Counted from the stretch's first letter, positions 13,362 through 63,449 are shown. The stretch: 64,000 bases of DNA from Pelagibacterium sp. (GCF_965249125.1 NZ_OZ252217.1:235736-299735), one strand, 5' to 3'. Numbers and translations are program-made. Notes: generated by a model from the letters alone, not told the origin.

Positions 13362-13449
13362 GATCGACAACGGATTTCCAAAGTTGAGCCTTCGGGTTTG
13401 TTCGGCCCTGCCTTTTATTTCATAAGCAGCCGAGACGTTCTGGCCACAA

Positions 13450-13550
13450 ACGGTGTGACAGCTTATTGGTAATTTCGATCCGATTGCCGACGGGCAGCTT
13501 TCGGCCCCTTTGTTGTCTCTCATCCGAACTGACAGCAACTGGCGCCAGGG
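13450..13550. repeat. Cluster of degenerate palindromic junction repeats
   Basis: 24-mers GCCGACGGGCAGCTTTCGGCCCCT (13486) and CCGAACTGACAGCAACTGGCGCCA (13524) match the units at 26516, 26657, 53344, 56177 and 62227. Confidence 0.65.
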
Positions 13551-14617: not shown

Positions 14618-14644
14618 CAGCGACCAGTCTTTGTTTGCAAGCGA

Positions 14645-15655: not shown

Positions 15656-15841
15656 GGGGCGAGCTCCTCAAACAATAGGCGCGTTTTTCCGATAAGAAAC
15701 GCTATATCCCGAAACCATGAGCCGACGCAAGTGCGATTGCAGGTGCGGTTCCACGGCGTAACTGGAACAGAAATGCCTGATATTTTATGCGCTTTGGCGC
15801 CAAGGACGGCACAGGCGGCCCCAGAATTTCCCTAGATCGAA

Positions 15842-15885
15842 TTGACAGGGGGTGCAGAGCATGTACTATCGGAAACATCGTTTCC
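15842..15885 (+). promoter_or_regulatory. Sigma70-like promoter with adjacent palindromic operator
   Basis: TTGACA (15842) -16 nt- TACTAT (15864), then the perfect palindrome GGAAAC-ATC-GTTTCC (15871-15885); candidate site for the XRE regulator. Confidence 0.6.
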
Positions 15886-15976
15886 TTTAGGCGCGCTCTT
15901 CGAGGGGCGTTGAGAGCGCCCCACGCAGAAACGCGTGAAATCCATCTTGACGCCCGCAATCGAAAGGGAAATTCGA

Positions 15977-17563: not shown

Positions 17564-17584
17564 ACTTTCCAGGAGAAAGAACGA

Positions 17585-19603: not shown

Positions 19604-19604
19604 T

Positions 19605-21329: not shown

Positions 21330-21394
21330 GCCTTTGACCGGTGACGCGGTTTTCCCTCCGCGTCACCACCTCATATCCGACAAAAAAGAGGTTT

Positions 21395-22246: not shown

Positions 22247-22255
22247 GAGCTGGCC

Positions 22256-23257
22256 ATGATGAACTTTATCCTAGCCCGCATCGGTTCGGCCATCGTGACC
22301 ATATTTGGAGCGTCAGTGCTGGCCTTTGTGGTTCTGCGAGCCGTTCCGACCAATCCCGCAAGATTGATCGCCGGGCCGTTCGCTAATGACGAGGTGATAG
22401 CGCAGGTGACCGCGAACCTGGGTCTGGACCAGCCTCTGCCGGTGCAATATTTCGACTACATTGTCTCGTTCTTTGGCGGCGATTGGGGGTTTTCTTATAG
22501 TGCAGGCCAGCCCGTTCTTTCCCAGATTACTGCCCGCCTGCCTGCGAGTGCGGAGTTGGCGCTGTACGCCTTTCTCTTTGCCTTTATCGGCGCGGTGCTG
22601 ATCACCGTTCTCGTGAGCTTTCTCAAATCCCGCTGGCTGGACCGGCTCTTGCGGGTCATCTCGTTCGTCAGCGTCGGCATTCCGCCCTTTTGGCTGGCTC
22701 TTTTGTTCTTGATGGTGTTTTTCGAGCAGTTGGGATGGTTCCCGGGACCGGTGGGGCGGGGGCCAGCACCTGAGGTCATACCTACGGGCATTTACACGAT
22801 AGATTATCTGCTGGCTGGCGACCTTTCCGGATTTGGAACCGCGTTCTATCACCTGACCTTGCCGGCCTTGGCCTTGGCACTCGGGCCGTTTGGCTATCTT
22901 GTTCGATTGCTGAGGGCCAATTTGCTCGATGTGATCAACGAGCCTTTCGTCACCGTTTTGCACGCCAAAGGTGTTGCGCCGATCTCCGCTCATTTCAGTC
23001 ACATTCTGCCCAACGCGTTCATGCCAACGCTGACGGCGGGAGGGCTCATTCTGGCTCAATTGCTGGGCGGCAGTGTTCTGGTCGAGCGCATCTTCATGTG
23101 GCCCGGCATAGGCACCCTGGTGATCGATGGGATCCTGCGGCAGGACTATGCAGTCGTGCAGGCATTCATCATGCTGAGCGCCATTATCTATATTGGCGTC
23201 AATCTCTTGGTCGACATCTTGTACGGCTATGTCGATCCGCGCGTTCGCAGGAGCTGA
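22256..23257 (+). CDS. ABC permease (OppB family)
   Basis: [44 protein letters not shown]. Confidence 0.9.
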
Positions 23258-23261
23258 GGCC

Positions 23262-24287
23262 ATGGAAAACCTTTCACCCTCGCTACCGCTGCTCGAGATC
23301 TTGGGCCTCAAAACGTCTTTCAAAACCCCTCGCGGTGTTGTGCGCAGTGTTGACGACGTTTCCTTTGTCATTCCAAAGGGCCAGACTCTGGGTGTGGTGG
23401 GCGAGTCAGGGTCTGGAAAGAGCGTGACCTCACTTTCCATCATGCAATTGGTGTCACGAGGAGGCGGCCAGATTGATGACGGCCGCATCGTGCTCAACAA
23501 GCCAGGACAACCCGGTCTGGAGCTTACCTCGCTTGATGAAAAAGCGATGCGCAGGATCCGGGGCAACGACATCGCAATGATCTTTCAAGAGCCCATGACC
23601 AGCCTCGACCCGGTGTGGTCGATCGGTGATCAGATCATTGAGGCGATCCGCCTGCATCAGCAGGTGTCCCGAAAGGAAGCACGCGAAAAAGCAATCGAGA
23701 TGTTGCGGCTCGTGGGCATTCCGGCTCCAGACAGCCGCGTGGATGATTATCCTCATCAGCTCTCGGGCGGAATGCGGCAGAGGGTAATGATTGCAATTGC
23801 GCTCTCGTGCCGTCCATCGTTGTTGATTGCAGACGAGCCAACGACAGCCCTCGATGTGACAATCCAGGCCCAAATACTGGACTTGATCCGACGCTTGCAG
23901 CAAGAAATTGGGATGTCGGTGCTGTTCATCACTCACAATTTGGGGGTGGTGGCCGAAATCGCAGATCGTGTTGCGGTCATGTATGCAGGCCAGGTTGTCG
24001 AAGAAGGGCCAGTCCGCGAGATCTTTTCAAGGCCACGACATCCTTACACTGTGGGACTTCTCAAATCGATACCTGGTGCCGCCCGTGAGAAGGATACAGC
24101 GCCGGCGAGCCGACTTGAGACCATCGGAGGCACACCGCCCAATCCCCTTGAACTGCCCAGTGGCTGCCGGTTTGCCCCGCGTTGTAGTCTTGCCGTTGAT
24201 GCGTGCCGCTCCAGTGTCCCTCCGCTTTTCGACGTCGGGCCCGAGCACGGCGGACGCTGTATCCGCTGGCAGGAGGTGAGCAAATGA
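23262..24287 (+). CDS. ABC ATPase (OppD family)
   Basis: [32 protein letters not shown]-terminal HPYT and GCRFAPRC. Confidence 0.92.
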
Positions 24288-25261
24288 ATACGGCTCCGTT
24301 GCTTGACGTTCGTGCTCTTTTTAAGCGGTTCCCGATCAAGGGATCGCCGTTCTCAAAGGAGAAAAAGGAAGTCCACGCCATTTCGGACGTCAGCTTTACG
24401 ATCAATCGCGGCGAAGTTGTTGGACTTGTGGGCGAATCTGGCTCAGGCAAGACGACGATCGGGCGCACGATCATGCGACTTACTGACCCTACCGAGGGCC
24501 AGATCCTCTTTGACGGCACCGATATTGCGCAAATCTCCCAGCGCGAGATGATGGCGTTTCGGCGCAAGATTCAAATGATCTTCCAGGATCCCTTTGCCAG
24601 CCTCAATCCGCGACGAAAGGTCGGAGAGCTCGTGGCCGAAGGCATGGAAATCCATGGCCTCGGCAACCGCCAGGAGCGGCAGGCGGAGGTGAACAGGCTC
24701 CTTGAGCTCGTCGGACTGCCTGCTGATGCTTCACAGCGACATCCCCACGAATTTTCAGGCGGCCAGCGCCAGCGCATCGGCATTGCTCGGGCTTTAGCCG
24801 TATCGCCGGACTTTATTGTAGCTGACGAACCGGTGTCAGCGCTTGATGTGTCGGTCCAAGCGCAAGTGCTCAATCTGCTGCAGGATCTGAAGGAGCAATT
24901 GGGTCTCACTGTACTCTTCATTGCTCACGACCTTGCAGTTGTTGAACATTTTTGCGACCGCGTCATCGTCATGTACTTGGGCCGCATCATGGAAATAGCT
25001 CCTCGACGCCGCCTCTATGCTGCTCCGCAGCATCCCTATACCGAAGCGCTTCTTTCGGCTGCGCCGGCGCCAGACCCGGATCGCTCCGGTCAACGCATCG
25101 TTCTCGAGGGCGATATCCCGAGCCCGATCAACCCACCATCGGGATGCGTCCAGCGCACCCGTTGCCGGTACGCGATTTCTGATTGCGCCAAGATCGTTCC
25201 CCAGTTGCGCGAAGTTGCACCAGGACACTTCAAGGCCTGTATCCGCGACGATATTTTCTAG
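24284..25261 (+). CDS. ABC ATPase (OppF family)
   Basis: [30 protein letters not shown]; ATGA overlap with the upstream gene. Confidence 0.92.
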
Positions 25262-25271
25262 GATTATTGCC

Positions 25272-26438
25272 ATGCCGATTCTCAATTCGATCATTGATGC
25301 GCATCAGGAAATCACGGCCTGGCGCCGCGATTTTCATGCCCATCCCGAACTTTTGTACGATGTCCATCGAACGGCGGAGAAAGTGGCGGAGCAGCTAGAG
25401 AGTTTTGGCGTCGATGAGGTGGTTACCGGCATTGGCAGGACTGGTGTGGTGGGCGTTATTCGCGGACGCGGCACAGGGCCAACAATCGGGCTGCGGGCAG
25501 ATATGGATGCACTGCCCATCACCGAGAAGAGCTCGGCCTCTTACGCTAGTCAAAATGCGGGCCTGATGCATGCGTGCGGTCACGATGGTCATACGGCCAT
25601 GCTGCTCGGGGCTGCACGATACCTCGCCGAAAACCGAGGTCTTGATAGCGATGTAGTCGTCATTTTTCAGCCCGCAGAAGAAGGTGGTGCGGGCGGTTTG
25701 GCCATGGTGGAGGACGGATTGTTTGAGCGTTTCGGGATTGATGCTGTCTATGGCTTGCACAATTTGCCCGGACTGCCGGAGGGATCATTCGCCACTTGCT
25801 CTGGCGCGATCATGGCCTCTGCAGATGAGTTCGAGATCGAAATTTCTGCGAAAGGTGGTCATGCCGCATGGCCTCACAATACGGTCGACCCGATCCTTGT
25901 AGCCGGGCAAGTGATTACTGCACTCCAATCGATTGTGGCGCGCAATGTGGATCCCCTTGCGTCAGCTGTTGTGTCGGTAACTCAGATGCACTCCGGGTCC
26001 GCTTATAACGTGATACCGTCAGAAGCGACCCTGCGCGGCACGGTCAGAACCCTTGCTCCACGAACACGTGATGTTGTCGAAGAGCGAATGAATGAGATAG
26101 TCACACATATTGCCGCGGGATTTGGAGCCACCGCAAAGCTTAATTTTCGCCGCGGCTATCCCGTCACGGTCAATGATCCGAATCAGGTGGCCTTCGCTTG
26201 CGACGTCGCTGCCAGCATTGTCGGTGAGGAAAAGGTTGAGCGCTTCATGACTCCGATGATGGGCGGCGAAGACTTTGCCTTTATGCTGGAGCGGTGCCCC
26301 GGCTCATATCTGTTCATTGGAAACGGCGACACCAGCGGGCTTCATACCGATGAATACGACTTCAACGACTCCATCATACCAATAGGAGTCAGCTACCTTG
26401 TTGAACTCGCCCGCAGTGCGACCTCTCATAGGAGATAA
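25272..26438 (+). CDS. M20 amidohydrolase (hippurate hydrolase-like)
   Basis: RRDFHAHPEL, LRADMDALP, MHACGHDGH, FQPAEE, GGHAA, GEDFA, LH. Confidence 0.92.
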   Translation: MPILNSIIDAHQEITAWRRDFHAHPELLYDVHRTAEKVAEQLESFGVDEVVTGIGRTGVVGVIRGRGTGPTIGLRADMDALPITEKSSASYASQNAGLMHACGHDGHTAMLLGAARYLAENRGLDSDVVVIFQPAEEGGAGGLAMVEDGLFERFGIDAVYGLHNLPGLPEGSFATCSGAIMASADEFEIEISAKGGHAAWPHNTVDPILVAGQVITALQSIVARNVDPLASAVVSVTQMHSGSAYNVIPSEATLRGTVRTLAPRTRDVVEERMNEIVTHIAAGFGATAKLNFRRGYPVTVNDPNQVAFACDVAASIVGEEKVERFMTPMMGGEDFAFMLERCPGSYLFIGNGDTSGLHTDEYDFNDSIIPIGVSYLVELARSATSHRR

Positions 26439-26479
26439 AGTGCTACGACTTCGTGGTCGACCGTCTGGAACCGGCGTGA

Positions 26480-26700
26480 CGATGAATGGCAGCTTTCTCT
26501 GATTTCACGGCAGCACCGGACTGACCGCTTACGGCTCCCTGCCTGACACACCGAAATATGAACGAATGGCAGGTACGGGGCGGCGACCGGAGCCTGCCGA
26601 AGGGCGACTTTTGGGTCGACAGGCGAACGGCCGCTATTCGCAAATCCCGACCGAAACCCGACAGACAGCTTCCGGCCCCGACTTTGCCGTTCAGCAAGAA
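26480..26700. repeat. Cluster of degenerate palindromic junction repeats
   Basis: Several GAAYGNCMGC-type arms plus 24-mers CCGGACTGACCGCTTACGGCTCCC (26516) and CCCGACAGACAGCTTCCGGCCCCG (26657). Confidence 0.65.
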
Positions 26701-49242: not shown

Positions 49243-50753
49243 TGTACCCCGTCAGCACCGATGGCACAGATTTGATCTTGTGATGTAAGGAGGGTTTTGG
49301 TCTCGTCGGAGTGACGAAGGAACGACGATGAGATCAAAACCCTCGAAAGCCAAGAAGCCCGCCGAACAGGTGGTCAAGGATATCCGCCGCGCGACACGGC
49401 GGCACTTTTCTGCAGAAGACAAGATCCGCATTGTGCTCGATGGCCTGCGTGGAGAGGACAGCATTGCCGAGCTGTGCCGCAAGGAAGGCATTGCCCAGAG
49501 CCTCTATTACACCTGGTCCAAGGAATTCATGGAAGCGGGAAAGCGTCGGCTTGCTGGCGATACAGCCCGTGCTGCCACCACCGACGAGGTCAAGGAACTG
49601 CGCCGCCAGGCCGGAGCGCTCAAGGAGTGTGTTGCCGATCTGACGCTGGAAAACCGTCTGCTCAAAAAAAGCATGATCGCGGATGGGGACGACGACGCAT
49701 GAGGTATCCAGCATCCGAAAAGCTCGAGATCATCAGGCTGGTCGAGCAATCCCATCTGCCAGCAACACGCACGCTCGATAATCTGGGCATCGCGCGCCGG
49801 ACCTTTTATCGCTGGTATGACCGCTACCTCAATGGTGGGCCCGAGGCGCTGGAGGACCGGCCATCGGCGCCCAGCCGGGTGTGGAACCGGATCCCGACCG
49901 CCATCCATGATCAGATCATCGAGATGGCGCTGGAACAGTCCGAACTGAGCCCCAGGGAACTGGCGGTTCGGTTCACCGACGATAAGGGCTACTTCGTGTC
50001 TGAAGCCAGCGTTTACCGGCTTTTGAAGGCCCACGACCTGATTACCAGCCCGGCCTATGTCGTGATCAAGGCTGCCGATGCCTTCCACACCAAGACCACC
50101 CGGCCCAACGAGATGTGGCAGACCGATTTTACCTACTTCAAGATCCTCAGCTGGGGCTGGATGTATCTCTCCACCGTGCTCGACGATTATTCCCGCTACA
50201 TCATCGCCTGGAAGTTGTGCTCAACGATGCGGGCACAGGATGTCACCGACACTTTGGACCTGGCACTGGCAGCTTCAGGGTGCGATCGGGCCCATGTCCA
50301 CCATAAGCCTCGGCTGCTCAGCGATAACGGCCCGAGTTACATCGCCGGGGAACTGGCCAACTACATCCAGGCCAACCGGATGAGCCATGTGCGCGGTGCA
50401 CCCTGTCATCCTCAGACCCAGGGCAAGATCGAGCGCTGGCACCAGACACTCAAGAACCGGGTGCTACTGGAAAACTACTTTCTGCCGGGGGATCTCGAGG
50501 CCCAAATCGCTGCTTTCATCGAGCATTACAACCACCAGCGTTACCACGAGAGCCTCGACAACGTGACCCCGGCCGACGCCTACTTCGGCAGGGCACAAAC
50601 CATCATCAAACAGAGAGAAAGGATCAAACGACAGACCATCGAGCATCGGCGCTTGCAACACCGCAATCTCGCCGCATAAAATCAACCCACAGACGAGGCC
50701 AACGCTCCTCTATTCAACGCAACAAATTGCGCCAAATCATCTGACGACAGACA
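49243..50753 (+). mobile_element. IS3-family insertion sequence
   Basis: Imperfect IRs TGT....CGTCAG at both ends; orfA 49328-49702 and orfB 49699-50679; slippery A7G at 49664-49671; no target duplication. Confidence 0.9.
49328..50679 (+). CDS. IS3 transposase OrfAB (programmed -1 frameshift)
   Basis: OrfA HTH; OrfB DDE (WQTDFTY, SDNGPSY, QGKIERWHQT); AAAAAAAG joins the two frames. Confidence 0.88.
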
Positions 50754-51457
50754 GTTTGAAGTCGATCAAGTCCGAGACCGAGATTGGCCTTATGAAGATC
50801 GCCGGCCGCCTGGCCGACGGTGGGCTTGCGGACCTGCGCGACAATCTCAAGGAAGGCATGACCGAGCGTGAAGCCGTTCGGATCTGCTACACCTCGATGT
50901 TCTCGAACGGTGCCGACAGCCAGGCCTTCGACATGATGGTCCAGTCTGGCGAGAATTCCGCCAAGTACTTCCTGGCCCGACCGCGCGACAAGGTTATCCG
51001 CAAGGGCGAACTCCTCCTCGTGGACATCGGTTGCCGGTTTAACGGTTACGCATCGGACATGGCGCGTGGCGTGGCCTTCGGTGAAGTCAGCGCCAAGCAG
51101 CAGGAACTGCTCGATGTGACGCTGGAAGCATGGCTGGCCGGCACAAAGCACCTCAAGGCCGGCAACAAAGCCTCCGCACCGGACAAGTATATCAATGAAG
51201 TCCTCGAACAGCGCGGATATCTGCATGGCAATGGCGAGGGCCGCTCATGCGGCCATGGCACCGGCATGGATCCCGAGGAAGAAATCCCGTCCATGGGTTC
51301 GGATGTGATCCTCGAGGAAAACATGAGCGTGTCGTACGAAGTGACGGTCCAGATCCCGGGCGTCGGCGGTAGCCGCGTCGAGGACGATGTGATCATCCGC
51401 AAGGACGGTCCGGAGTTCCTCACTCACTTCGCCCACTCGTGCCAGTGGGGCGTCTGA
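50754..51457 (+). pseudogene. M24 (Xaa-Pro) metallopeptidase C-terminal domain, N-terminus removed at the IS end
   Basis: Starts at the IS junction with LKSIKSETEI (the usual domain linker); VDIG..FNGYASD, HGTG, EVTV, RVEDDV. Confidence 0.85.
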
Positions 51458-52824: not shown

Positions 52825-53343
52825 TTGGAACACGCTGTTCTTCAATCGACCAGGGTCTGGCTTCGTCAGTCTCAAGAACGCCGAAATAATGCGCGAACCT
52901 CCAGGCCCTTTGCCAAGGTTAAGCAGGTCGCAGCGTCGCCAGCGAAACGATCCAAACCGGATGCGGCAGTAGCTCGAATGCCGCCGCCGAAGACCGAGAG
53001 AGCCGCTCCAATCCGCTCAATCACATTCCCTCCGGCCAAAGCGTCGATCAGCCTTGCCACCCGGCACGCTCGCGATAATTTACACACCCCTCCCGCCGCC
53101 GCAATATCGTCATCGCGGCGCGCCAACGCCAATGCCTGACTACCCTTTCCAAAACCACAACGTTTCGTTTCGGGGTGTACCACATAGCACTGGTATACAT
53201 ATGTCTGCAGCGCCGGTATCTCGAATGCAGTGGGCACCGCCGCGCACTTTGCACCTGACAGTTGTGCATTCATAAGCAACCGGAAAGTGTTCGAGCCGAT
53301 AGTAGAAGATTTGACGTCCGCTTTGCTGGCCTGAAAGCCAAAA

Positions 53344-53418
53344 TCGGACCGTCCGTAATCGGCCCCGCGGCTGCCGATCTCATCGTTTCTCTTTTGGCCA
53401 ATCACGGCCAAAGGAGAA
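53344..53418. repeat. Junction repeat plus 13-6-13 palindrome upstream of recombinase 1
   Basis: 24-mer at 53344; TTCTCTTTTGGCC-AATCAC-GGCCAAAGGAGAA at 53387-53418, identical at 62270-62301. Confidence 0.8.
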
Positions 53419-53423
53419 CTGAA

Positions 53424-54056
53424 ATGGGATACTCTCGATATGATGCCGCAGCCCGAGGACGGGCTGCATGGAATGCTGGAAAGACAGTCGGGACCAAACG
53501 CCCTCTTACGCAGAAGCAGATCTGGGCTGTCCGTTTCTTCCTGGATCGGGAGGGCCGGGTTCGAGACCGTGCCCTGTTCGACCTTGCCATCGACAGCAAG
53601 CTTCGCGGCTGCGATCTGGTCAAGATCAAGACTGGCGACCTAGTCACAGGGCCGGAAATTCGAACGCGGGCCATGGTCGTTCAGCAAAAGACCGGGCGGC
53701 CAGTTCAATTCGAACTGACCAGCGATGTGCGTGCCAGCCTGCTCTCATGGCTTGAGAAGCGAGGGGGCAGTGTCAGTGACTATGCCTTTCCGAGTCGTAT
53801 TGACCACGGCAATCACATGAGCACACGGCAGTATGCCCTTCTGGTGGACGAATGGGTCACAGCCATTGGTCTTCGATCCTCAGACTATGGCACGCATTCG
53901 CTGCGAAGAACGAAGGCGGCGATGATATACAAGGCAACCGGAAACCTGCGCGCCATCCAAATTCTGCTCGGCCACACCAAGATCGAGAATACCGTTCGGT
54001 ATCTCGGTGTGGACATCGAGGATGCTTTGCTTCTGGCTGAACGGACCGAAATATGA
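53424..54056 (+). CDS. Small tyrosine recombinase (210 aa), copy 1
   Basis: Catalytic R (KLRGCDL), HxxR (HSLR), LGH and Y (TVRY); no arm-binding N-terminal domain. Confidence 0.92.
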   Translation: MGYSRYDAAARGRAAWNAGKTVGTKRPLTQKQIWAVRFFLDREGRVRDRALFDLAIDSKLRGCDLVKIKTGDLVTGPEIRTRAMVVQQKTGRPVQFELTSDVRASLLSWLEKRGGSVSDYAFPSRIDHGNHMSTRQYALLVDEWVTAIGLRSSDYGTHSLRRTKAAMIYKATGNLRAIQILLGHTKIENTVRYLGVDIEDALLLAERTEI

Positions 54057-54060
54057 GCTG

Positions 54061-54240
54061 GAGCGGTCATTCGCTCACCACGGATGACCGCTTCGTTCCA
54101 CTGGCTCTAGGTTCACAGATGCCGACACCGGGGTGGGAACCTGCCGTTCCCGCGACCAGCCCCTGAATGCAGCTATGTGGACAAAGCGCTAATTCGCTGC
54201 AGTTACTCGAACGACCGCTTCACGGTGAATCTAAATTCGT
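54061..54240. repeat. 13-7-13 palindrome and degenerate repeat cluster downstream of recombinase 1
   Basis: GAGCGGTCATTCG-CTCACCA-CGGATGACCGCTT (54061-54093); further GAAYGNCMGC-type arms near 54166 and 54209. Confidence 0.7.
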
Positions 54241-54295
54241 TCGGCAAAGCGCCTGATGCGTTCCACCAGGCGCCTCTTGTTCCTGTCACATCGCG

Positions 54296-55015
54296 TTACT
54301 TGATGGCGAGGATGTCGAAGTTGTGGACGTTAGCGACCACACCGTCGTCCCACCCGCCAGCGACCAACTCCGCTGCCCGTTCGTTCAGCAGCCCGGCGAC
54401 TTGACCGGCAAAGTGTGCTTCACGGCCAGCATTGTTGGTGAAGATGTCGAAGATTGCGAAGGATGTTTCGTCAATCTGCAGCGCCGCCCAGAACAATGTG
54501 CCGGGTTCGGTTTCTCCGACGATGGGACCAGCTGCGGTCAGCAAGGCTGCCAATTCCGGCCCTCTGCCGGGTGCTGCTTCGAGCGTGATGTACGTGGCTG
54601 TCGTGGCCGAGTAGAGATCAACCGGTTCCCTCACCGACAGGACATCGGAATTGTTGATATTCGCGACAACACCATCGTCCCAGCCCCCGGCGACCAGCGC
54701 GTCGGCATTTTGGTTCAAAGCCGCGGCCATAGCGCCGGAGAAATGCGCATTGCGCGCTTCTTCATCCACGAAGATATCAAAGATCGCGAGCGTATCGTCG
54801 GCTTGTAAGGCAAACCAAAGCACGGTGCCTGGTTCGGTGTCCGCGACAATCGGGGCGGCTCCGGCCAGAAATTCGGCGAATGCTTCGGTCTGGCCTTCAG
54901 CGGCGAGCATGGCGATGTAGCTGGCAGTGTGATTTTCCATTGGGGTTTCCTGTGCGGGTGCAGATGTCGTGATCAAGGCCAAAGCGGCGAGTGTCTTGAG
55001 AATTTGGGCTTTCAT
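54296..55015 (-). CDS. Secreted protein with two tandem ABM/quinol-monooxygenase-like domains
   Basis: Sec signal (MKAQILKTLAALALITTSAPA); internal duplication TEPGT..W.AL...AIFDIF...R.AHF.G...LVAGGWDDGVVAN. Confidence 0.8.
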   Translation of the reverse strand: MKAQILKTLAALALITTSAPAQETPMENHTASYIAMLAAEGQTEAFAEFLAGAAPIVADTEPGTVLWFALQADDTLAIFDIFVDEEARNAHFSGAMAAALNQNADALVAGGWDDGVVANINNSDVLSVREPVDLYSATTATYITLEAAPGRGPELAALLTAAGPIVGETEPGTLFWAALQIDETSFAIFDIFTNNAGREAHFAGQVAGLLNERAAELVAGGWDDGVVANVHNFDILAIK

Positions 55016-55112
55016 GGTCGCCTCCTGATTGAGAGGTCGTTGTGTTTGGTTTCGATGCATCCTTTTCCCATGCCGAATGCCTCAGGCACCAATCCCGAAC
55101 TTCTATTCTTTG

Positions 55113-55127
55113 ATAGACATGTGCTAT
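55113..55127. promoter_or_regulatory. LysR box
   Basis: ATAG-N7-CTAT palindrome (T-N11-A) between divergent genes. Confidence 0.6.
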
Positions 55128-55165
55128 GGTGAACCTCATGGCGGAAAGTGACGGAGACTGTGGCA

Positions 55166-56032
55166 GTGGAGATGAACCAGATCAGGTATTTTTTGGCTGT
55201 CTGCCAGCATCGCAACTTCACCCATGCCGCTAGCGCCTCAAATGTTTCCCAACCGTCCTTGACGACCGCGATCAAGAAACTTGAACACGAGCTCGGGGGT
55301 GATCTGTTTGTCAGGGACCGCGCGGGATGCAGGTTGACGGCACTCGGAAAACTCATGCAGCCAAGGCTACAGAAAGCGCATGACGAAACGCAGGCAGCTA
55401 AGGCAGAAGCCGTCCGCCACACGCGACTAGAGCGGGTTCCTATTTCTGTCGGTGTTGGCGAAACGATTGGTCACAACCGGATTTCAGCCGCCGTGGAACG
55501 CTTCCGTACACGATTGCCGCAAGCCGAAATAGAGTTGATCGTGGCGTCTGCCTCCAAGCTTCTGGCCGGATTGCGAGAGGGTAAATTTGACGTCGTTGTC
55601 ACAGCGGCGACGGTCAGTGAAGACCTCTATCGAATAGACCAGCTCTATGACGAGTCCTACAAGGTTGTGGTGTCCAAGTCGCACCCGTTGTCTGAACGAG
55701 ACGCTATTTCTCTTTCGACACTCGCTGAAACTGACATGCTCGATCGACCCAATTGCGAAATGCGGGATGCGTTGCATGGGGCATGTGCAGACCAAGGTCA
55801 CGAACTCTACGCGGCCTATCGGTCAAATCGCGTGGATTGGTTAGTCGAACTCGCGCGGCAGGGATTAGGCGCGGTGATTTTGCCAACCACGGCAATTCCA
55901 GCAGACAGGGGCCTCGTTTCGATACTCATCGACGGCCTTGAAATTTCGCGAACTGTTTCTGCTCTTCGTTATCGGCACCAAACGACGAGACCAGAGACAA
56001 ATGATCTGATCCGTGAGATTGCGCGTGTGTAG
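55166..56032 (+). CDS. LysR-family transcriptional regulator
   Basis: MEMNQIRYFLAV...NFTHAA...VSQPSLTTAIKKLE HTH. Confidence 0.9.
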   Translation: MEMNQIRYFLAVCQHRNFTHAASASNVSQPSLTTAIKKLEHELGGDLFVRDRAGCRLTALGKLMQPRLQKAHDETQAAKAEAVRHTRLERVPISVGVGETIGHNRISAAVERFRTRLPQAEIELIVASASKLLAGLREGKFDVVVTAATVSEDLYRIDQLYDESYKVVVSKSHPLSERDAISLSTLAETDMLDRPNCEMRDALHGACADQGHELYAAYRSNRVDWLVELARQGLGAVILPTTAIPADRGLVSILIDGLEISRTVSALRYRHQTTRPETNDLIREIARV

Positions 56033-56039
56033 ACGTAGT

Positions 56040-56330
56040 ATCATTGATGGCCGACATTCGCGCATAGTGCAGTAACTGGTACTTTGGGCTCGAATCGGTC
56101 GTTCCGGAAGCCAATCGCGAATGGCCGGAATGGCGTCGGATGCTGAATGTCGGCTTTGTCCGCATCCATGTCAGAACCGGTCAGTCCGCTGTCGGCTCCA
56201 AATTGTGCCAATGCCTCGGCGCAGCGGATCCTCTGCTGGTGACCGGCATGAGGTAGTTTTAGGCGGGCAGCTTGCAGCGACCAAGTAGAGCATGCAGACG
56301 TTCGCGTTGGCTTTTATCATGCAGACGACC
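56040..56330. repeat. Degenerate palindromic repeat cluster inside the cargo
   Basis: GCCGACATTC (56049) / GAATGTCGGC (56146) perfect inverted pair; 24-mer at 56177; GCAGACGTTC near 56313. Confidence 0.7.
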
Positions 56331-56455
56331 GGGCGTCGAGGCGGCGTGACCGGGCAGCACTGTTTCAGCATAACCTTCAGGGGCTTGCCGTAAGTTTAGT
56401 TACCGTAGATGCTCAGTATCAGACTTTGGGAAGCTTTTCAGGTTGATCTGTCGCT

Positions 56456-57406
56456 ATGGGGGAAACAAAAAACGCATCTGAAGTCAGCGACTTTCTGCTG
56501 GAACTATACCATGATGCGTCTGAATGCAGGCCGGAGGAACTTCGCCTGCGGGTGCTGCAAAACCTACAGCGCTTCATTCCTTTCGATTTCGGGGTGTGGG
56601 GCGGTGGCTGGGCCAATGGCCGGCTGGTTACGGACCTGACGGTTCTCAATCAAAGCGAGGCGATATTGGGCGAATGGGACTCTGTCGCCCAGGAGGATGC
56701 CTTCTGTGACCTGACGCTCAATCGTCTCGGCACGACCGCCCGTTTCGATGACGTTCCAAACTATCGCGCAAGTCTGGCCTTTAATGAGCATTGGCAGCGC
56801 TTCGATGCCACGCACATGATGGCGACGATCGTCGGGGAAAAGACGGACGGCTATGTTAGCTTCGTGGGTCTGTGCGCGGAAAATAGACCGATGACGTTCT
56901 GCGATACCCAGCGCAGGTTCAAGCAGCTGCTTATGCCACATCTATCGCAGGCGCTGCGTATGAACCGTGAACTGTGGACCGGTCGCGCGGCACTGGAACA
57001 TGAAGCGATCGCGCTGATAGACCGGGAAGGTTGGGTGCTGTGCACACAGGGGCCCTTTGACGATTTTGCCGAACACGAATGGGGTGGGCGCATAGCGCAA
57101 CTACCCGCTCACGTCATGGACACGCTTAAACGTGGCAATCGCTGGCGGGGCGAAATGCTGGATGTTCGATTGTCCCCGTTCGGCAGCAATTATTTCGTCC
57201 ACCTGTCAATCCATCCCGCCCTTTCGAGTTTGTCTCCGCGTGAACGTGAGGTCGCTGGATTGTTCGGCTCCGGCATGACCACCAAGCAGGTGGCGCGTGC
57301 CTTGGGTACATCACCATCCACAGTGCGCAATCAGGTCGTGCGCATCTACGAAAAGCTCGGCATCTCCAGCAAAGCGCAGCTCGCGACACTTGCCGGCGGT
57401 AAGTAA
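56456..57406 (+). CDS. LuxR-type HTH regulator with an N-terminal sensor (GAF-like) domain
   Basis: LSPREREVAGLFGSGMTTKQVARALGTSPSTVRNQVVRIYEKLGISSKAQL. Confidence 0.88.
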   Translation: MGETKNASEVSDFLLELYHDASECRPEELRLRVLQNLQRFIPFDFGVWGGGWANGRLVTDLTVLNQSEAILGEWDSVAQEDAFCDLTLNRLGTTARFDDVPNYRASLAFNEHWQRFDATHMMATIVGEKTDGYVSFVGLCAENRPMTFCDTQRRFKQLLMPHLSQALRMNRELWTGRAALEHEAIALIDREGWVLCTQGPFDDFAEHEWGGRIAQLPAHVMDTLKRGNRWRGEMLDVRLSPFGSNYFVHLSIHPALSSLSPREREVAGLFGSGMTTKQVARALGTSPSTVRNQVVRIYEKLGISSKAQLATLAGGK

Positions 57407-57424
57407 CCGCCGTGCTGCGCTGCC

Positions 57425-57444
57425 AATAGAGCAAATGCTCTATT
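57425..57444. promoter_or_regulatory. 20-bp palindromic operator candidate
   Basis: AATAGAGCA-AA-TGCTCTATT, perfect, between the LuxR gene and the downstream operon. Confidence 0.6.
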
Positions 57445-57514
57445 TTCAATCGAGCCTGGACGCGATTACCTTCAGAACGCGCGCCAGACGAGAGCGGGCG
57501 CAATTGGGGGATGC

Positions 57515-58489
57515 ATGTGGGATTTCAGTGTTGGCAGGGCAATTGGTCTGATGATGCAGACCCTGCCTTTCGTTGTGCTTAGGATGGCCGTCTATTTCGT
57601 TATTACCTTGGCCTATATCCTTGTGACGGGCACAGGCGCGGGAATCGGGTTTGGCGTAGGCGCCCTGGGCGATGCTGGCTTTCAGACCGGTTCGACCTTC
57701 TGGGGCGGCCTGATCGGTTTCGGTATTGTCGGGGCCGTCATGTACTGGGCGCGCGAATATATCCTCTACATCGCTAAGGCCGGCCATATCGCCGTGCTGG
57801 TAGAGTTGATCGATGGTAAGCAGCTGCCCGAGGGGCGCTCGCAGGTCGAGCATGGCAGGGTCGTTGTGACGGAGCGGTTCGCGCAGGCCAGCGTGCTGCT
57901 TGCAGTCGATCAACTCATCAAAGGCGTGTTGCGAGCGGTCACCGGGCTGATCCGCGGTCTACTCACCATTTTGCCGATACCGGGCGTCCGGCAACTGACC
58001 GGCATCCTGCATGCCTTTCTACAAGTGGCGGTCGGATTTATCGACGAAGTTATCCTTGCCTACGCCATCAGGACTGGCTCGACCAATCCGTGGGCCTCGG
58101 CCAAGGACGCGCTGGTGCTTTATGGGCAGAACTACAAGGTCATGCTCAAGAATGCCGCCTGGCTCTCCATCATCGTCTATCTCCTGAGCTTTGTGGTGTT
58201 CCTCGTCATGCTCGCGCCCGCAGCACTGGTTGTCTACCTGATGCCGGGCGCGTGGGCGGCAGGCGGGTTCGTCTTTGCGCTTCTGTTCGCTTGGGCGGTC
58301 AAGGCTGCGCTTTTAGAGCCGTTCGCCATTACCTGCCTGATGCAGGTCTATTTCAAGACAATCGAAGGCCAGCAACCCGATCCCGAATGGGATGCACGGC
58401 TTGAGCAGATGTCGGGCAAGTTCCGCGACCTCAAGACGCGTGCATTCGGCAGCCAGGCTCAACCCGATGCCAGCGCCCAACCTGCCTGA
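57515..58489 (+). CDS. Hypothetical polytopic membrane protein
   Basis: Several hydrophobic helices; RBS GGGGA; operon position. Confidence 0.8.
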   Translation: MWDFSVGRAIGLMMQTLPFVVLRMAVYFVITLAYILVTGTGAGIGFGVGALGDAGFQTGSTFWGGLIGFGIVGAVMYWAREYILYIAKAGHIAVLVELIDGKQLPEGRSQVEHGRVVVTERFAQASVLLAVDQLIKGVLRAVTGLIRGLLTILPIPGVRQLTGILHAFLQVAVGFIDEVILAYAIRTGSTNPWASAKDALVLYGQNYKVMLKNAAWLSIIVYLLSFVVFLVMLAPAALVVYLMPGAWAAGGFVFALLFAWAVKAALLEPFAITCLMQVYFKTIEGQQPDPEWDARLEQMSGKFRDLKTRAFGSQAQPDASAQPA

Positions 58490-58509
58490 CACGACACTGC
58501 GAGGGAAAT

Positions 58510-60546
58510 TTGATCATGAGACTTTTCGCGCTCCTGCCGCTGGTGCTCGCCTCGAGCTTGGTGCCGTCTATCGCAGCCGCATCCGAGGATGTGGTGGTCG
58601 TTTACGACGGCTCGGGTTCGATGTGGGGGCAGATCGCCGGCGTCGCCAAGGTCGAGATCGCGCGAGAGGTCATGGGTGATCTTATCGCCACCTGGCCTGA
58701 GGGCGCAAACATAGGGCTCGTGGCCTACGGTCACCGGCGCGAAGGAGACTGCTCCGACATCGAGACCTTGATTGCACCGTCCCCGCTGGACAGGGCGACC
58801 TTCATTTCGACGGTCAACGGGGTCACGCCGCGCGGGCGCACGCCGCTCACCGAGTCCGTTCGTCAGGCCGCCGATCTGCTTTCCTATCGCGACACGCAGG
58901 CTACCGTGATCCTGATTTCGGACGGATTGGAAACCTGCCAGGCCGATCCTTGTGCGCTCTCGGCAGAGCTGGCGCAGCAGGGGGTGAACTTTACCGCCCA
59001 TGTGGTCGGCTTTGATCTGACCGAAGAAGAGCACGCCGGCCTTGCCTGTATTGCGGAGAACACGGGCGGGGTGTTCGTGCCTGCGCAAAATGCCGATGAG
59101 CTGCGCGATGCGCTGGCTCATGTGCAAAACGTTGTCGACCTTCAGCCGCTCTCTCCGCCCGAATCCGTAACGGAGCCTGACCCCGTACCGGAACAGCAGG
59201 TCGATGCCGAGATCGAGCTTGACGTGCCCGCTACAGTGGTCACCGGTGCCAGCTTCACCGTCGCATGGTCTTCCACGATCGACCCGCAGGATTATATCAC
59301 CATCGTTCCCGTTGGGGCGGATGAAAACACTTATGGCAACTACCAGCGGGTGTACGGCAATACAGAGAGTAGCCTGACTGCGCCCGCCGAACCGGGACTT
59401 TACGAGGTGCGCTATGTCCTGGACGAGGGCACACGCGCATTGGGTTCTACCCCGGTGGAGGTTGTCGAAGCCGAAGTCTCAATCTCCGCTCCCGACGAAG
59501 TCACGACAGGTGCCAGTTTTGATGTTTTGTGGTCGTCTTCTATTCATCCCCAGGACTACGTCGCCATCGTTCCTGTGGGCGCGGATGAAGGCACCTACAC
59601 CAATTACCAGCGCGTGCGTGACCAGACGGAAGGCAGCTTGACTGCGCCTGCCGAGCCGGGGCTCTACGAGGTGCGGTATGTGCTGGAGGAAGGCGCGAGA
59701 ACGCTGGCGTCGGACCCGGTGGAGGTGATCGAGGCCGAGATATCTGTTTCGGCCCCGGAAACGGTCACGACCGGAGCGAGCTTCACTGTTTCCTGGTCAT
59801 CCTCGGTCCATCCCCAGGACTACGTGACCATCGTTCCTGTGGGCGCGGATAAAGGCGCCTACACCAATTACCAGCGCGTGCGCGACGACGCGGAAAACAG
59901 CCTGATCGCCCCTGCCGAGCCGGGACTTTACGAGGTGCGGTATGTTCTGAACGAAGGCTCTCGGACGTTGGCATCAGCCTCGATCGAGGTCCTCGAGGCT
60001 GAGGTGATCCTGCAAGGCCCGGACGTCGCGCGTGCACAAACACCGCTGCGCATAAGCTGGTCTATGATCATTCATCCTCAGGACTATATCACCATTGTTC
60101 CGGCTGGCGCCGATGAAGGAAGCTACCAGGACTATATCCACGTCAGGGACGATCTTGAGGGAGATCTCGACGCGCCTGCCGATCCCGGCCTTTACGAGAT
60201 CAGATATGTTCTGCAGGAGGGCGCACGCACGATTTCCAGCCGCATGCTGGAAGTGGTTGGGGCTGACGCTCCGCTCGATGATGGTGTGGGCTTGATTGTT
60301 CCGTCGCAGGCCGGTTCCGGCGAGACGATCACCATTACCTGGTCCGGGGGTGCTGACAGCGCCGACTAGCGCCTGGCGCTTGCCCGGGCCGATCAGGCCG
60401 ATTTCAGCTGGATCGAAGCCTATCGCATCGGCGAGGAAACCACAGTCGAATTGACCATGCCAAATGAGCCGGGCCGCTATGAGATCCGGTATCTTGATAT
60501 CAGCGGACAGGCCGTTCTTGGGCGCGCCATCGTGGAGGTGGAATGA
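58510..60546 (+). pseudogene. Secreted VWA-domain protein with tandem 88-aa Ig-like repeats; premature TAG at 60367-60369
   Basis: MIDAS DGSGS, LISDGLETC; repeats at 264-bp period; frame continues 58 codons past the TAG to a TGA overlapping the next ATG. Confidence 0.85.
59230..60290 (+). repeat. Four intragenic 264-bp tandem repeats
   Basis: (D/H)PQDY.(T/A)IVP.GAD-coding segment recurs at 59281, 59545, 59809 and 60073. Confidence 0.9.
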
Positions 60547-61403
60547 CCATGTTTCTTGCCAAAAAGACTCAATGGCTTGCTGTGGCGGCCGCCGTTCTTG
60601 TGCTTCCCTGCTTCCTTGCGGCCGCTCACGCCGAAATCGACGGCCACGGTCCCGACGCGTGGCGGGTCATAGATGTTGGGGCCAACGATGTGCTCAACGC
60701 CCGCATGGGGCCCGGCACCAACTATCCCGTGATCGAGACCTTTGCGTATGACGCGCGGGGATTGCAGCAGATCACCTGCGTTCCGTTTTACACGATGGCG
60801 CATTTTTCGGCGATGACCGACGCCGAACTCGCGGCCCTGCCGCCGCGCTGGTGTCTTATGCGTTCCGCCGATTTGAGCAAGGCAGGCTGGGTGGCGCAAC
60901 GCTTTCTGATTGCCGATTTCGATGATGACGTCCTTTTCGGGGATGGCGGAGGGTATGACGAGCCCGAGGAGGTGATGGATGTCGAAAAGATCCTTCCCGC
61001 GCCCACGGCCGGCTCTGACGCGTGGTCCAGTGACGAACTGATCGAACACGCGCGTGGGCTCGTTGCGGCGCTATATGCCTATGATGACCCTGCTCGGGGC
61101 GTGAGCCATCGCGATCCGGCCGCGCCCGATGTGTTTTTCTCCAGTGAATTCAGGGATGCGCTGCGATCCCGCCCGCCCGGCGCGGACCTGCTCATAGGCG
61201 CGCAGGATTTCCAGGGCAGCGTTTCCGAGCCGATGCCGGACCCCGATCAGCCCATGTTCCGCGGCATGATTACAATCAATGTCGAGGTCGAAAACTTCGG
61301 CCAGAGGCACACGGCCATCTTCCGCCTGCGCGGCGACACCACCCGACCTGACGCCCCGCTGCGCATTTTCCGCATCGAGCACGACGGCTGGTCGTACCCG
61401 TAA
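60543..61403 (+). CDS. Secreted protein with an SH3-like (bacterial SH3b) N-terminal domain
   Basis: Signal peptide; VIDVGANDVLNARMGPGTNYPVI and GWVAQRFL SH3b-like motifs; small C-terminal domain. Confidence 0.75.
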   Translation: MTMFLAKKTQWLAVAAAVLVLPCFLAAAHAEIDGHGPDAWRVIDVGANDVLNARMGPGTNYPVIETFAYDARGLQQITCVPFYTMAHFSAMTDAELAALPPRWCLMRSADLSKAGWVAQRFLIADFDDDVLFGDGGGYDEPEEVMDVEKILPAPTAGSDAWSSDELIEHARGLVAALYAYDDPARGVSHRDPAAPDVFFSSEFRDALRSRPPGADLLIGAQDFQGSVSEPMPDPDQPMFRGMITINVEVENFGQRHTAIFRLRGDTTRPDAPLRIFRIEHDGWSYP

Positions 61404-61425
61404 GCGCATAAAAAGGACGTCTTCA

Positions 61426-61965
61426 ATGAAACTGTATCCAGCGCCTATCCTGGCAGCATTCGGACTCACCCTGTGCCTGGCGCAGCCTGCGCTGGGCCAA
61501 ATTGCAAAAACGGTGGTGGGTTCAGTCGAAGCTACGATCGGCGATATGGCCTATGCGGGCGAAACGCTCGATGTGCCCTCCGAGGGGTCCTCGACCGCCG
61601 AAATTCGATCTTTTGGCCCGGTGACCTCTATCTCCATCCAGGCTCACGACCCCGAGGCCGACAGCCTCATGCGCAACGTCCTGACCATTGAGGTTTCGCT
61701 GATGGGAAGCGATGCCTCCATCATTGAACCGTCAGTTGCATGGTGGCCGGAAGGGATGAGCCCGCCCTTCTATCTCAGCGAAGACAGCGGGGCGGCCCCC
61801 GAAGTCGTCTTTGATGTGCTTTCTCTGGAAGACGGGGCCGCCGCCGCCAAGGGCAGTTTCTCGGCCGTCGTCTGCCGCAGGGAAAGCATGCTCGCGGAAG
61901 CTGACACGAGCGACTGCCGTCAGGTCGAGGGTACTTTCGATACCGCCTTGCGCAAGGCCGATTGA
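61426..61965 (+). CDS. Hypothetical secreted protein
   Basis: RBS AAAGGA; Sec-type signal ending PALG; beta-rich mature part with two Cys. Confidence 0.7.
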   Translation: MKLYPAPILAAFGLTLCLAQPALGQIAKTVVGSVEATIGDMAYAGETLDVPSEGSSTAEIRSFGPVTSISIQAHDPEADSLMRNVLTIEVSLMGSDASIIEPSVAWWPEGMSPPFYLSEDSGAAPEVVFDVLSLEDGAAAAKGSFSAVVCRRESMLAEADTSDCRQVEGTFDTALRKAD

Positions 61966-62159
61966 ACCATAACAAACCAGTCGCTTGCTCGTTTAATACT
62001 GGTGTCTGATGGGAACGCGGCGGCCCCTCATGGCCTACAATCACGTTCTGCACCGTGCGTAATAAGAGTGCGGAGGACGAGATAGCAAAACGTCGGGTGG
62101 ACATGACGCGGTCGCCAATGACTACTGCACATGCAGGGTCCGGTTCCAAAAGCGAGGAC

Positions 62160-62301
62160 TATTAACGCGAACGACCGGGATGGGGTCGGCAGCCGGATGG
62201 CCGCTTATCGAGCGATTTCGCCGAAACCGGACAGGCAGCAATCGGCCCCGCAGCCGCCGGTCTCAGCGTTTCTCTTTTGGCCAATCACGGCCAAAGGAGA
62301 A
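62160..62301. repeat. Repeat cluster plus 13-6-13 palindrome upstream of recombinase 2
   Basis: GAACGACCGG and GATGGCCGCT arms, 24-mer at 62227, palindrome 62270-62301. Confidence 0.8.
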
Positions 62302-62306
62302 CTCCG

Positions 62307-62939
62307 ATGGGATACTCACGATACGATGCTGCAGCTCGAGGGCGGGCTGCATGGAATGCTGGAAAGACTGTTGGGACCAAGCGCCCTCTAACGCAGAAGC
62401 AGATCTGGGCTATCCAATTCTTTCTGGATCGGGAGTGCCGAGTCCGAGATCGTGCCCTGTTCGATCTTGCGATCGACAGCAAGCTTCGCGGATGCGACTT
62501 GGTGAAAATTAAAACCGGAGACCTGGTGACAGGGCCGGAAATTCGAACGCGGGCTACCGTGGTGCAACAGAAGACCGGGCGTCCTGTCCAATTCGAATTG
62601 ACCGGCGATGTGCGCGCCAGCCTACTGGTGTGGCTCGAGAGACGCGGCGGCACAGTCGAAGATCATGCTTTCCCAAGCCGGATCGACCACTCGCACCACA
62701 TGAGCACGCGCCAGTATGCCCGCCTGGTGGATGAATGGGTCACAGCGATCGGGCTTCGATCATCGGACTATGGCACACACTCGCTCCGCAGAACCAAAGC
62801 GGCCATGATTTACAAGGCCACCGGCAATCTGCGCGCCATTCAGATATTGCTCGGCCACACCAAGATCGAAAACACGGTGCGGTATCTCGGTGTGGACATC
62901 GAGGACGCGTTACTTCTTGCTGAACGGACCGAAATTTGA
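62307..62939 (+). CDS. Small tyrosine recombinase (210 aa), copy 2
   Basis: Same catalytic residues; 13 aa differences from copy 1 by eye count. Confidence 0.92.
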
Positions 62940-62969
62940 GCCTGGAGCGGTCATTCGCTCACAACGGAT

Positions 62970-63137
62970 GAGGGTGGTGGCGGCGGCCAGCGCGGCATCC
63001 ATAGCGTTGCCGCCGCGCTCGAGCATTTGAAGGCCGGCCTGGACAGCGAGCGGCTGGGACGTTGCAACAATATTTTGCGCCATCACCGGGGCCTGTGTTG
63101 CGCCATAGGGGGCTGCATAGGAAAACGCGATGGTCAT
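62970..63137 (-). pseudogene. ggt: 5' remnant of gamma-glutamyltransferase
   Basis: [30 protein letters not shown] is the GGT N-terminal signature; it stops at the recombinase-proximal palindrome. Confidence 0.85.
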
Positions 63138-63449
63138 GTTTGGTCCTGATTGTTAAAGGGGCTTGAACGGACGTCGGCTCTGGAGCGCACGCGCTCAAAA
63201 GCGGTTGTGAGGGTCTGCGCAATGCGGAATCGAACGGGTGATGCTAGCCCCGATCCCTGCCAATCGGCATATTCATAAGTAAATTGCAGAACGCAGACCT
63301 TCACACCTGCGATGCTAGAGAGCTACTTTGTGAGGCGGAATACTGCTGTGCTGCAATGGACAGGAAAAGTCGTCTTTCACTCATGAGTATGCTAGTGCCA
63401 ACCGATCTATCGGTTGTCGATCTCCCACGTATTTCCAGCGGGGCCGCTG

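Follow-up and report, generated by a model that had tools for sequence, protein, structure and literature searches.

Integrons build same-direction arrays by means of a tyrosine recombinase, with one site at the distal end of each unit and crossover at a short conserved core that forms the edge of a longer degenerate site; their arrays can outlive the recombinase gene as CALINs (integron-less attC clusters), and they show signs of unit reordering and horizontal spread. They have been described as "entirely absent" from Alphaproteobacteria (PMC9668308). A 64,000-nucleotide stretch of Pelagibacterium sp. DNA (NZ_OZ252217.1:235736-299735, assembly GCF_965249125.1; termed the window, and numbered from its first nucleotide unless genome positions are stated) belongs to a system in which each of these features recurs. 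Its 9.8-kb focal region holds two genes for 210-aa tyrosine recombinases, rec1 and rec2, and short repeats at the junctions between gene modules. We consider it probable (roughly 0.7), on the strength of sequence comparisons, that the 210-aa recombinase, encoded beside two of these junction repeats, uses them as double-stranded, sequence-specific recombination sites and so exchanges modules at these positions. In logic the system is closest to integrons, from which it departs in enzyme type, in attC sequence and fold, and in having no fixed platform. Specifically, the enzyme has neither the IntI-specific insertion nor a core-binding domain; the sites carry no GTTRRRY and no conserved fold; there is no attI platform or common promoter, the recombinase gene lying co-oriented inside the unit, and the same unit occurring in different contexts; and the units are multi-gene (~2.8 and 6 kb in the focal region), several with regulator genes.

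TnpI of transposon Tn4430 offers a likeness in site layout. It is a tyrosine recombinase without an arm-binding domain whose site, the IRS, lies immediately upstream of its own gene and consists of an inverted-repeat core (IR1-IR2) with extra copies of the recognition motif (DR1, DR2) on one side only, an arrangement that the present sites resemble. TnpI differs in being ~280 aa long with a core-binding domain, and in resolving the cointegrates of one transposon, whereas the dispersed sites described here bound modules.

Both recombinase genes are intact and lie in direct orientation on the plus strand (rec1, 53424-54056; rec2, 62307-62939), as a preliminary description of this DNA had noticed, and they are the only copies of the gene in the whole genome. 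Each encodes a catalytic domain only, which is matched by Pfam PF00589 (Phage_integrase) with 74.9 bits for rec1 and 68.7 bits for rec2 (cut-off 27.1 bits; residues 29-196 of 210, or 83-250 in the numbering of a 264-aa open reading frame (ORF)). The full catalytic set RKHRHY (R61, K89, H158, R161, H184 and Y193) is kept in both proteins. Together, the PF00589 score, the R-K-H-R-H/W-Y residues and an alignment to the catalytic domain of XerD (residues 125-281 only, with ~39 residues preceding the aligned region) place the protein in the tyrosine recombinase superfamily. No extra domain was found in it, and all specific NCBIfam families score far under their cut-offs. The integron integrase model TIGR02249 reaches 16 bits against a cut-off of 265 and matches residues 131-194 only, in agreement with the earlier statement that the enzyme is not IntI; the XerC, XerD and XerA models reach 38-59 bits against cut-offs of 220-335, so that the protein is not an XerC/XerD orthologue; and the FimB/FimE models PRK09871 and PRK09870 reach 20.5 and 17 bits against 222 and 221. 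PRK09871 nevertheless gives a weak full-length match (E = 2.7e-4; residues 27-196 aligned to positions 6-174 of the 198-position profile), and FimB and FimE resemble the present enzyme in size (~200 aa) and in comprising a catalytic domain with a short N-terminal extension. They differ in inverting one promoter segment between 9-bp inverted repeats, whereas here direct sites bound cargo. Structure prediction returned a mean pLDDT (predicted local distance difference test) of 50 for the sequence alone and 49.5 with a 44-row alignment as input, the low values arising because all the relatives used are too similar.

The two genes share 94% protein identity and 83% coding-DNA identity (dS 0.97, dN/dS 0.04), within a DNA repeat common to both copies that spans approximately 53338-54088 and 62221-62971. 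A recent duplication is ruled out as their origin by the dS, making rec2 an old paralogue or xenologue. On these values, rec1 and rec2 arrived separately and long ago and have been kept under strong purifying selection, and both look functional from their catalytic sets and dN/dS.

Each repeat comprises four boxes of type AAAGCNGNC and a core CGGCCC(C/A), with the full pattern GNCNGCTTT-N17-19-AAAGCNGAC-N-GTCNGC-NNN-CGGCCCM-NNN-GCNGNC. The core-type part, GNCNGC-NNN-CGGCCCM-NNN-GCNGNC, consists of two inverted boxes around a 13-bp centre (layout 6-3-7-3-6), which differs from a dif-like site of 28 bp (11-6-11) when the layouts are compared. Two additional boxes are confined to the left side, AAAGCNGAC abutting the core-type part and GNCNGCTTT 17-19 nt farther out, and position profiles of 53 recombinase-adjacent and 61 solo sites show that the right arm mirrors the left in both classes. 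Directly upstream of recombinase genes the consensus extends over ~85 nt, ..GGGGTCGG-N5-GAAYGNCNGCTTT-N17-19-RAAGCNGAC-N-GTCNGC-NNN-CGGCCC(C/A), in which CGGCCC is invariant across the family; the site ends ~55-65 nt before the ATG. RNAalifold found no consensus pairs in 53 aligned sites, and no covariation of the variable box positions was seen by eye; the element is therefore a set of sequence motifs rather than a conserved hairpin. On the same grounds a folded, attC-like site was rejected, and with it the analogy to folded integron hairpins that had been drawn earlier. Site recognition thus looks sequence-specific and double-stranded, judging by these alignments.

A profile hidden Markov model was built from 57 sites in other genomes and searched with nhmmer. 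The three focal sites, S1 to S3, score between E = 8e-10 and 5.7e-12. S1 (53290-53366, plus strand; E = 8e-10) has left boxes GACGTCCGCTTT ... AAAATCGGAC-C-GTCCGT, the core CGGCCCC at 53360-53366 and the right arm GCG-GCTGCC after it. The solo site S2 (56119-56199, plus strand; core CGGCTCC at 56193-56199) is the best match in the genome (E = 5.7e-12), and S3 (62170-62249, plus strand; E = 2.1e-11) has the core CGGCCCC at 62243-62249, followed by the right arm GCA-GCCGCC. Three further plus-strand sites lie elsewhere in the window: a weaker one at 13429-13508 (core 13502-13508; E = 1.4e-4) and two at 26459-26679 (cores 26532-26538 and 26673-26679; E = 1e-8 and 5e-10), the first of which starts 21 nt beyond the stop codon that ends a 473-aa ORF. 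The latter two are complete sites 141 bp apart that enclose an empty unit (26539-26679), which is what excision of a module, or capture of a site alone, would leave. The 20-mer GNCNGNCNGYNNNCGGCYCC, comprising the inner boxes and core, matches six times in the window with at most one mismatch, always on the plus strand and with the cores of S1 to S3 and of the three further sites, where 0.84 matches are expected. The 24-mer of the preliminary description is accordingly real, and corresponds to the right-hand part of the upstream site. The arms GAAYGNCMGC / GCNGNCRTTC that it had placed around a ~13-nt core do represent a recurring box of these elements; however, the boxes stand 17-19 nt apart, the 10-mer GAAYGNCMGC alone is weakly enriched (10 matches against 4.7 expected in the window, two of them being the arms of a hairpin after a stop codon), and the crossover falls in CGGCCC(C/A) beside the boxes. 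A unit loosely assigned to 63.2-63.3 kb was not detected by the profile.

Across the whole genome (3.86 Mb, 61% G+C) we found ~16 sites at E < 0.05, two of which adjoin a recombinase gene. Eight are gathered within 77 kb (genome 249-326 kb), all on the plus strand and thus on the same strand as both recombinase genes, and a second small cluster occurs at genome 2.556-2.588 Mb. Within the focal 9.8 kb, S2 divides one gene module (A) from another (B), and the region is best read as three tandem units: S1 with rec1 and module A, S2 with module B (a LuxR-VWA operon), and S3 with rec2 and onward. The 8.25 kb between the recombinase genes, previously taken as a single bracketed cargo of 8.2 kb, is therefore present as stated but is not one cargo.

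Comparisons between genomes allow the module boundaries to be placed at high resolution. In four such comparisons homology breaks in, or at most 3 bp from, the 7-bp core, in line with the proposal of the preliminary description that synteny would break at the repeats. (a) P. luteolum (loci L007 and L096) and UBA1912 (L006 and L097) have 5187 bp in common at 100% identity, running from the CGGCCCC upstream of the recombinase gene to the CGGCCCC of the next site, and both flanks are unrelated; the unit encodes the recombinase, a TetR regulator, an HlyD-type protein and two ABC-2 permeases, and is followed by a second recombinase gene in UBA1912 and by other DNA in P. luteolum. (b) The DNA upstream of a solo site in Pararhizobium (L052) matches that upstream of a gene-adjacent site in Sinorhizobium (L044) over 1.1 kb, with 94% identity, and the match ends at core +3. 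(c) A close relative of the present genome (G003, 94-99% identical here) has the order X | B - rec1 - A | Y, compared with rec1 - A | B - rec2 in the window. Ahead of its module B (from 56143 onward, 94% identical) stand foreign DNA and a differing copy of the left boxes; its module A stops at 56196 and gives way to foreign DNA; and at the far end of module B come a rec1-type gene and, after that, the beginning of module A. The two junctions lie within CGGC(C/T)CC, at the S2 core. At S1, where the homology between the two recombinase copies begins, the junction in this relative changes flank inside CGGCCCCGC. (d) P. luteolum (G012) carries a counterpart, at 89% identity, of the 8-kb module at genome 318,001-325,998; in that genome the module stops at its site core, and the 5187-bp recombinase unit of case (a) comes next. 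Over all alignments, 1058 homology endpoints were counted; 198 of them fall no more than 15 bp from a core, where random positions give 7, and the gene-adjacent boundary accounts for most of the 198. Identity of 7 bp at both ends of a moved segment is the signature expected of conservative exchange by a tyrosine recombinase.

The association of site and gene extends well beyond this genome. Flanks were compared for 84 gene copies in 79 loci from species-representative genomes, and a site lies directly upstream of 57 of the 84 genes (Rhizobiales and Sphingomonadales), its core ~55-65 nt before the ATG. Altogether 129 sites at E < 1e-4 were found in 1.15 Mb around family genes, 57 of them gene-upstream and 72 solo, and solo sites are ~15-fold denser there (~0.6 per 10 kb) than genome-wide in the present genome (0.04). 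Among the 67 solo sites in gene-holding loci, 55 are co-oriented with the nearest recombinase gene and 12 opposite to it; 51 lie downstream and 16 upstream of that gene. Related loci contain 41 consecutive pairs of co-oriented sites, delimiting units of 1.3-5.3 kb (median 3.5 kb) where the gene is present and of 0.9-11.6 kb where it is absent. This enrichment beside the recombinase family, co-oriented with the gene, is what a profile scan had been proposed to look for, and together with the breakpoints at the core it supports the earlier suggestion of a non-integron system exchanging multi-gene modules at the repeats.

These observations can be accommodated by the following scheme. Strand exchange would occur inside the 7-bp overlap CGGCCC(C/A), between the two inverted recombinase boxes, and a pair of co-oriented sites could therefore excise the intervening DNA as a circle with one site, which could re-enter at any other site. 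Repeated rounds would yield same-direction arrays with the unit [right arm - genes - left boxes - core]. Units with a recombinase gene just after the core would be autonomous, and cargo-only units, such as module B, would depend on enzyme supplied in trans. The accessory boxes, being on one side only, may give the reaction its direction or build the synapse, by analogy with TnpI and the IRS of Tn4430. Catalysis by the 210-aa enzyme, the circle intermediates and the movement of cargo-only units in trans are all parts of this scheme that we infer.

An alternative that shares much of this chemistry is that ordinary small integrative elements have accreted in tandem, the cargo-only units being decayed islets, with nothing shuffled today. 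Integrative and conjugative elements (ICEs), integrative and mobilizable elements (IMEs) and cis-mobilizable elements (CIMEs) indeed carry an integrase gene beside an att site, form co-oriented arrays by integrating into a regenerated site, and include gene-less members that could be mobilized in trans. Here too the gene is always at one end of the unit beside the site, as in classical integrative elements, the recombinase-bearing units have a median size of 3.5 kb, rec1 and rec2 are old (dS 0.97), and arrays without the gene exist. However, these units are far smaller (1.3-5 kb with the gene) than ICEs, IMEs and CIMEs, the enzyme is half the usual size, and the target is not a tRNA or housekeeping gene but the system's own site of 80 bp; the array itself lies inside a tRNA-integrated island. 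The differing order of modules A and B in a relative at 94-99% identity means that either a cargo-only unit or a recombinase unit must have moved, and a 100% identical unit in two species denotes recent mobility; moreover, neither a recombinase gene nor a remnant of one was found at the left end of module B. Quiescent accretion, which departs from the favored explanation mainly in the degree of activity and not in chemistry, thus appears unlikely.

Two further alternatives remove the 210-aa enzyme from the reaction. If the repeats were regulatory or REP-like (repetitive extragenic palindromic) host elements, homologous recombination between 80-bp repeats could produce the breakpoints and the recombinase might merely insert beside them; the sites are intergenic and just after stop codons, they are partly palindromic with profile matches on both strands, and they occur in genomes that lack the gene. 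Homologous exchange would nonetheless scatter along the repeat, and in all three base-resolved comparisons the break lies inside, or no more than 3 bp from, one and the same 7-bp stretch, which forms the repeat's right edge; this fixed junction therefore counts against such an origin. The left arms of the partners are also too unlike for RecA-type exchange (~75%, one pair aligned by eye), there is no conserved hairpin, and the sites are few, clustered in islands and co-oriented, unlike REPs. The REP/REPIN-RAYT (REP-associated tyrosine transposase) systems differ likewise, employing an HUH Y1 transposase and inverted REPs in tens to hundreds of dispersed copies, as compared with a PF00589 enzyme and ~16 clustered sites. 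We regard a REP-like explanation as highly improbable. Least probable of all is that host XerC/XerD, or another unlinked recombinase, acts on the sites and the 210-aa protein is a passenger or regulator. Gene-less arrays do exist, every genome that holds one has Xer-like matches at ~30% identity, and the 210-aa protein is itself Xer-like in its catalytic domain; yet the geometry from gene to site is fixed across two orders. The pdif modules of Acinetobacter plasmids, which resemble the present units as discrete modules that are bounded by short tyrosine-recombinase sites and found in varied contexts, use host XerCD at sites that alternate, whereas the sites here are co-oriented and have a dedicated, linked gene. 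Relatives at 51-58% identity that have related boxes and another core hint, in addition, at co-evolution of enzyme and site.

Several observations weigh against recombination at these sites by the 210-aa enzyme. The relative in case (c) is represented by a metagenome assembly, in which the B-rec1-A link runs out 260 bp past the gene. Across the class, 300 alphaproteobacterial genomes were sampled evenly (gene threshold E <= 1e-40; at most 15 site candidates scored per genome, a number at which site counts saturate); a site occurs in 22 of them and the gene in 15, with both in 5 where ~1 is expected, a positive but weak association. Three genomes (G156, G256 and G281) have co-oriented sites and no intact gene; sites therefore persist, or work, without a resident copy. 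A 12-kb module to the left of the 26.5-kb sites (M1, 13995-26402) has counterparts in G016, G014 and G012 at 76-77% identity, and in G016 (L099, C1:3,170,176-3,183,650) it forms a 13.5-kb insertion between positions that are adjacent here (2,800,397 | 2,800,401), with no site or recombinase found near it; not every module boundary is therefore explained by these sites. Finally, the N-terminal core-binding domain (~100 aa) that is usual in Xer, Cre and Int was not found in the XerD alignment of the 210-aa protein, which bears on how such an enzyme would clamp DNA.

A broader proposal, for which we consider the chances to be even, is that Alphaproteobacteria possess their own cassette system, in which a half-size recombinase carried on the cassettes and a double-stranded, multi-box site would excise, capture and reorder self-regulated multi-gene modules, including cargo-only modules in trans, on islands, plasmids and chromids throughout the class. 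Such a system would occupy the place that integrons, reported to be missing from this class (PMC9668308), leave empty, and would be one of the chief ways in which alphaproteobacterial islands and plasmids come by their catabolic, transport and regulatory modules. The enzyme would then be among the smallest self-sufficient tyrosine recombinases, raising the structural question of how a protein comprising only a catalytic domain holds DNA, and the asymmetric ~85-bp site with its 7-bp overlap could provide a compact tool for genome engineering. The site profile can already be used to mark out modules when genomes are annotated.

The recombinase family is very large and tightly conserved, with at least 8000 scored relatives (clusters at 90% identity) at identities of at least ~82-85%. 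None of the best 120 of these 8000 falls below 84% identity, nearly every one is exactly 210 aa long, and they come from Rhizobiales and Sphingomonadales. The gene also occurs on 217 sequenced plasmid records from rhizobia, sphingomonads, roseobacters and acetic acid bacteria, and on annotated plasmids it appears as a lone "tyrosine-type recombinase/integrase" amid unrelated transport, regulatory and catabolic genes. Database annotation of the family is limited to generic integrase, and no description of the family or its site was found in full-text literature searches or in the tyrosine-recombinase classification paper. IntA of Rhizobium etli p42a was considered and rejected as a counterpart, being 382 aa long with no significant similarity (E = 0.19) and an unrelated att, namely the 23-bp site TCCGATAAGCATTACTTATCGGA (PMC4928290). 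More distant recombinase relatives at 51-58% identity (L101-L110), also ~200-210 aa, are preceded by AAAGCNGNC-like boxes and followed by a GGGCAGAGC...GCTCTGCCC hairpin, and the CGGCCC core is absent; this suggests that they are sister systems with their own sites. Outside this order, G156 (C1:589-621 kb and 1108-1112 kb; L116-L118) contains at least 14 good sites, four of them co-oriented over 32 kb, and its best recombinase relative is at most 30% identical. G196 and G221 have only frameshifted or partial gene copies.

Module A (54296-56032) contains an ABM-domain gene on the minus strand (54296-55060) and a LysR regulator on the plus strand (55148-56032), both assigned by Pfam. Its counterpart (54172-56106, 81-82% identity) occurs in G014 (twice), G012 and G002, and stops short of the site. 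Module B (56200-62169, plus strand) contains Pfam-assigned genes for a LuxR-type regulator (56456-57406) and a VWA protein (58510-60369), an unknown gene between them (57515-58489) and two unknown ORFs beyond (60543-61403 and 61279-61965). The window lies within an island of 107.5 kb (genome 218,983-326,524) by which a tRNA gene is divided, with the gene's 5' half at genome 218,950-218,982 and its 3' end, ...GGTTCAATCCC...CCACCA, at 326,300-326,335; two tRNA-Val genes stand at the left border of the island. In G327, a complete genome of the same genus, the tRNA gene is uninterrupted, with no island and no site at that position. The array therefore rides on a larger, conventionally integrated island.

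The recombinase genes are accompanied by conserved non-coding elements. A 13-6-13 leader hairpin (53387-53418, plus strand; -28.4 kcal/mol, z = -6.3) buries the Shine-Dalgarno sequence of rec1, and is identical upstream of rec2 (62270-62301) although the coding dS is ~1. The leader GGCCAATCANGGCC..AGGAGAA is kept across the family, with changes in the hairpin compensating one another, and the hairpin probably keeps translation of the recombinase low. No sigma-70-type promoter was identified upstream of rec1 in a promoter scan, and read-through from the preceding unit may therefore matter. After the rec1 stop codon, a hairpin with arms that resemble the boxes (54060-54094, plus strand; GAGCGGTCATTCG ... 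CGGATGACCGCTTC; -27 kcal/mol, z = -6.3) is probably a terminator; it recurs in nearly all relatives as GAGCGGTC...GACCGCTT, with interior changes that are compensatory by eye. Farther downstream (60-100 nt), 45 of the 84 loci carry the element TGGGGTGG-AAAGCGGAC-N-GNCNGCTTT-N17-AAAGCGGACATTC, which repeats the site in inverted form around another core, and weak minus-strand profile matches recur ~85-150 nt after the stop codon. Family alignment places a degenerate copy of this element at 54128-54250, with no strand assigned. The junction units noted earlier at 54.06-54.24 kb thus resolve into the terminator-like hairpin (54.06-54.09 kb) and the degenerate copy of this second conserved element (54.13-54.25 kb). 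The downstream-element profile detected no partner beside the solo sites in this genome, and the idea that solo sites are miniature recombinase-less copies (left repeat, short inner part, right repeat) was rejected.

The rec2 unit lacks the end of the post-stop hairpin and the downstream element: its truncated hairpin (62943-62971, plus strand) loses homology to copy 1 after GGATGA (62971), inside the right arm. A short minus-strand ORF follows (62972-63137), a 5' fragment with weak similarity to the N-terminus of gamma-glutamyltranspeptidase (PF01019, E = 0.003 over 20 residues only). The remainder of such a ggt-like gene was not found upstream of rec1, where there are a LacI regulator and minus-strand ORFs without a Pfam match. 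No Rfam family matches anywhere in 52.5-64 kb.

A further conserved motif, GATTCCGnCAnACnGCAATGCGCCCnCATTnCAGCCnTTCAG (short form GGCTATGCGCCC), stands after some of the cores and post-gene hairpins; examples occur at genome 316,964-317,005 (outside the window), at L091:639-700, and after the recombinase hairpins in L042, L044, L052, L057 and L062. In three genera, at contig starts in each case (L040:1-899, L035:1-155 and L082:1-90), CCCCTCCCGCGAAGCGGGTTCGTGC replaces the left boxes up to the core. The flank with CCCCTCCCGCGAAGCGGGTTCGTGC in L040 is the end of an element that encodes, on the opposite strand, a larger tyrosine recombinase with a SAM-like N-terminal domain; another mobile element may target or share the core of the recombinase site. 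Elsewhere in the window, 50000-50755 is the end of a repeated element, probably an insertion sequence, which abuts a Peptidase_M24 ORF starting at 50756 and has two more copies, 100% identical, at genome 226,539-227,294 and 2,529,576-2,530,329.

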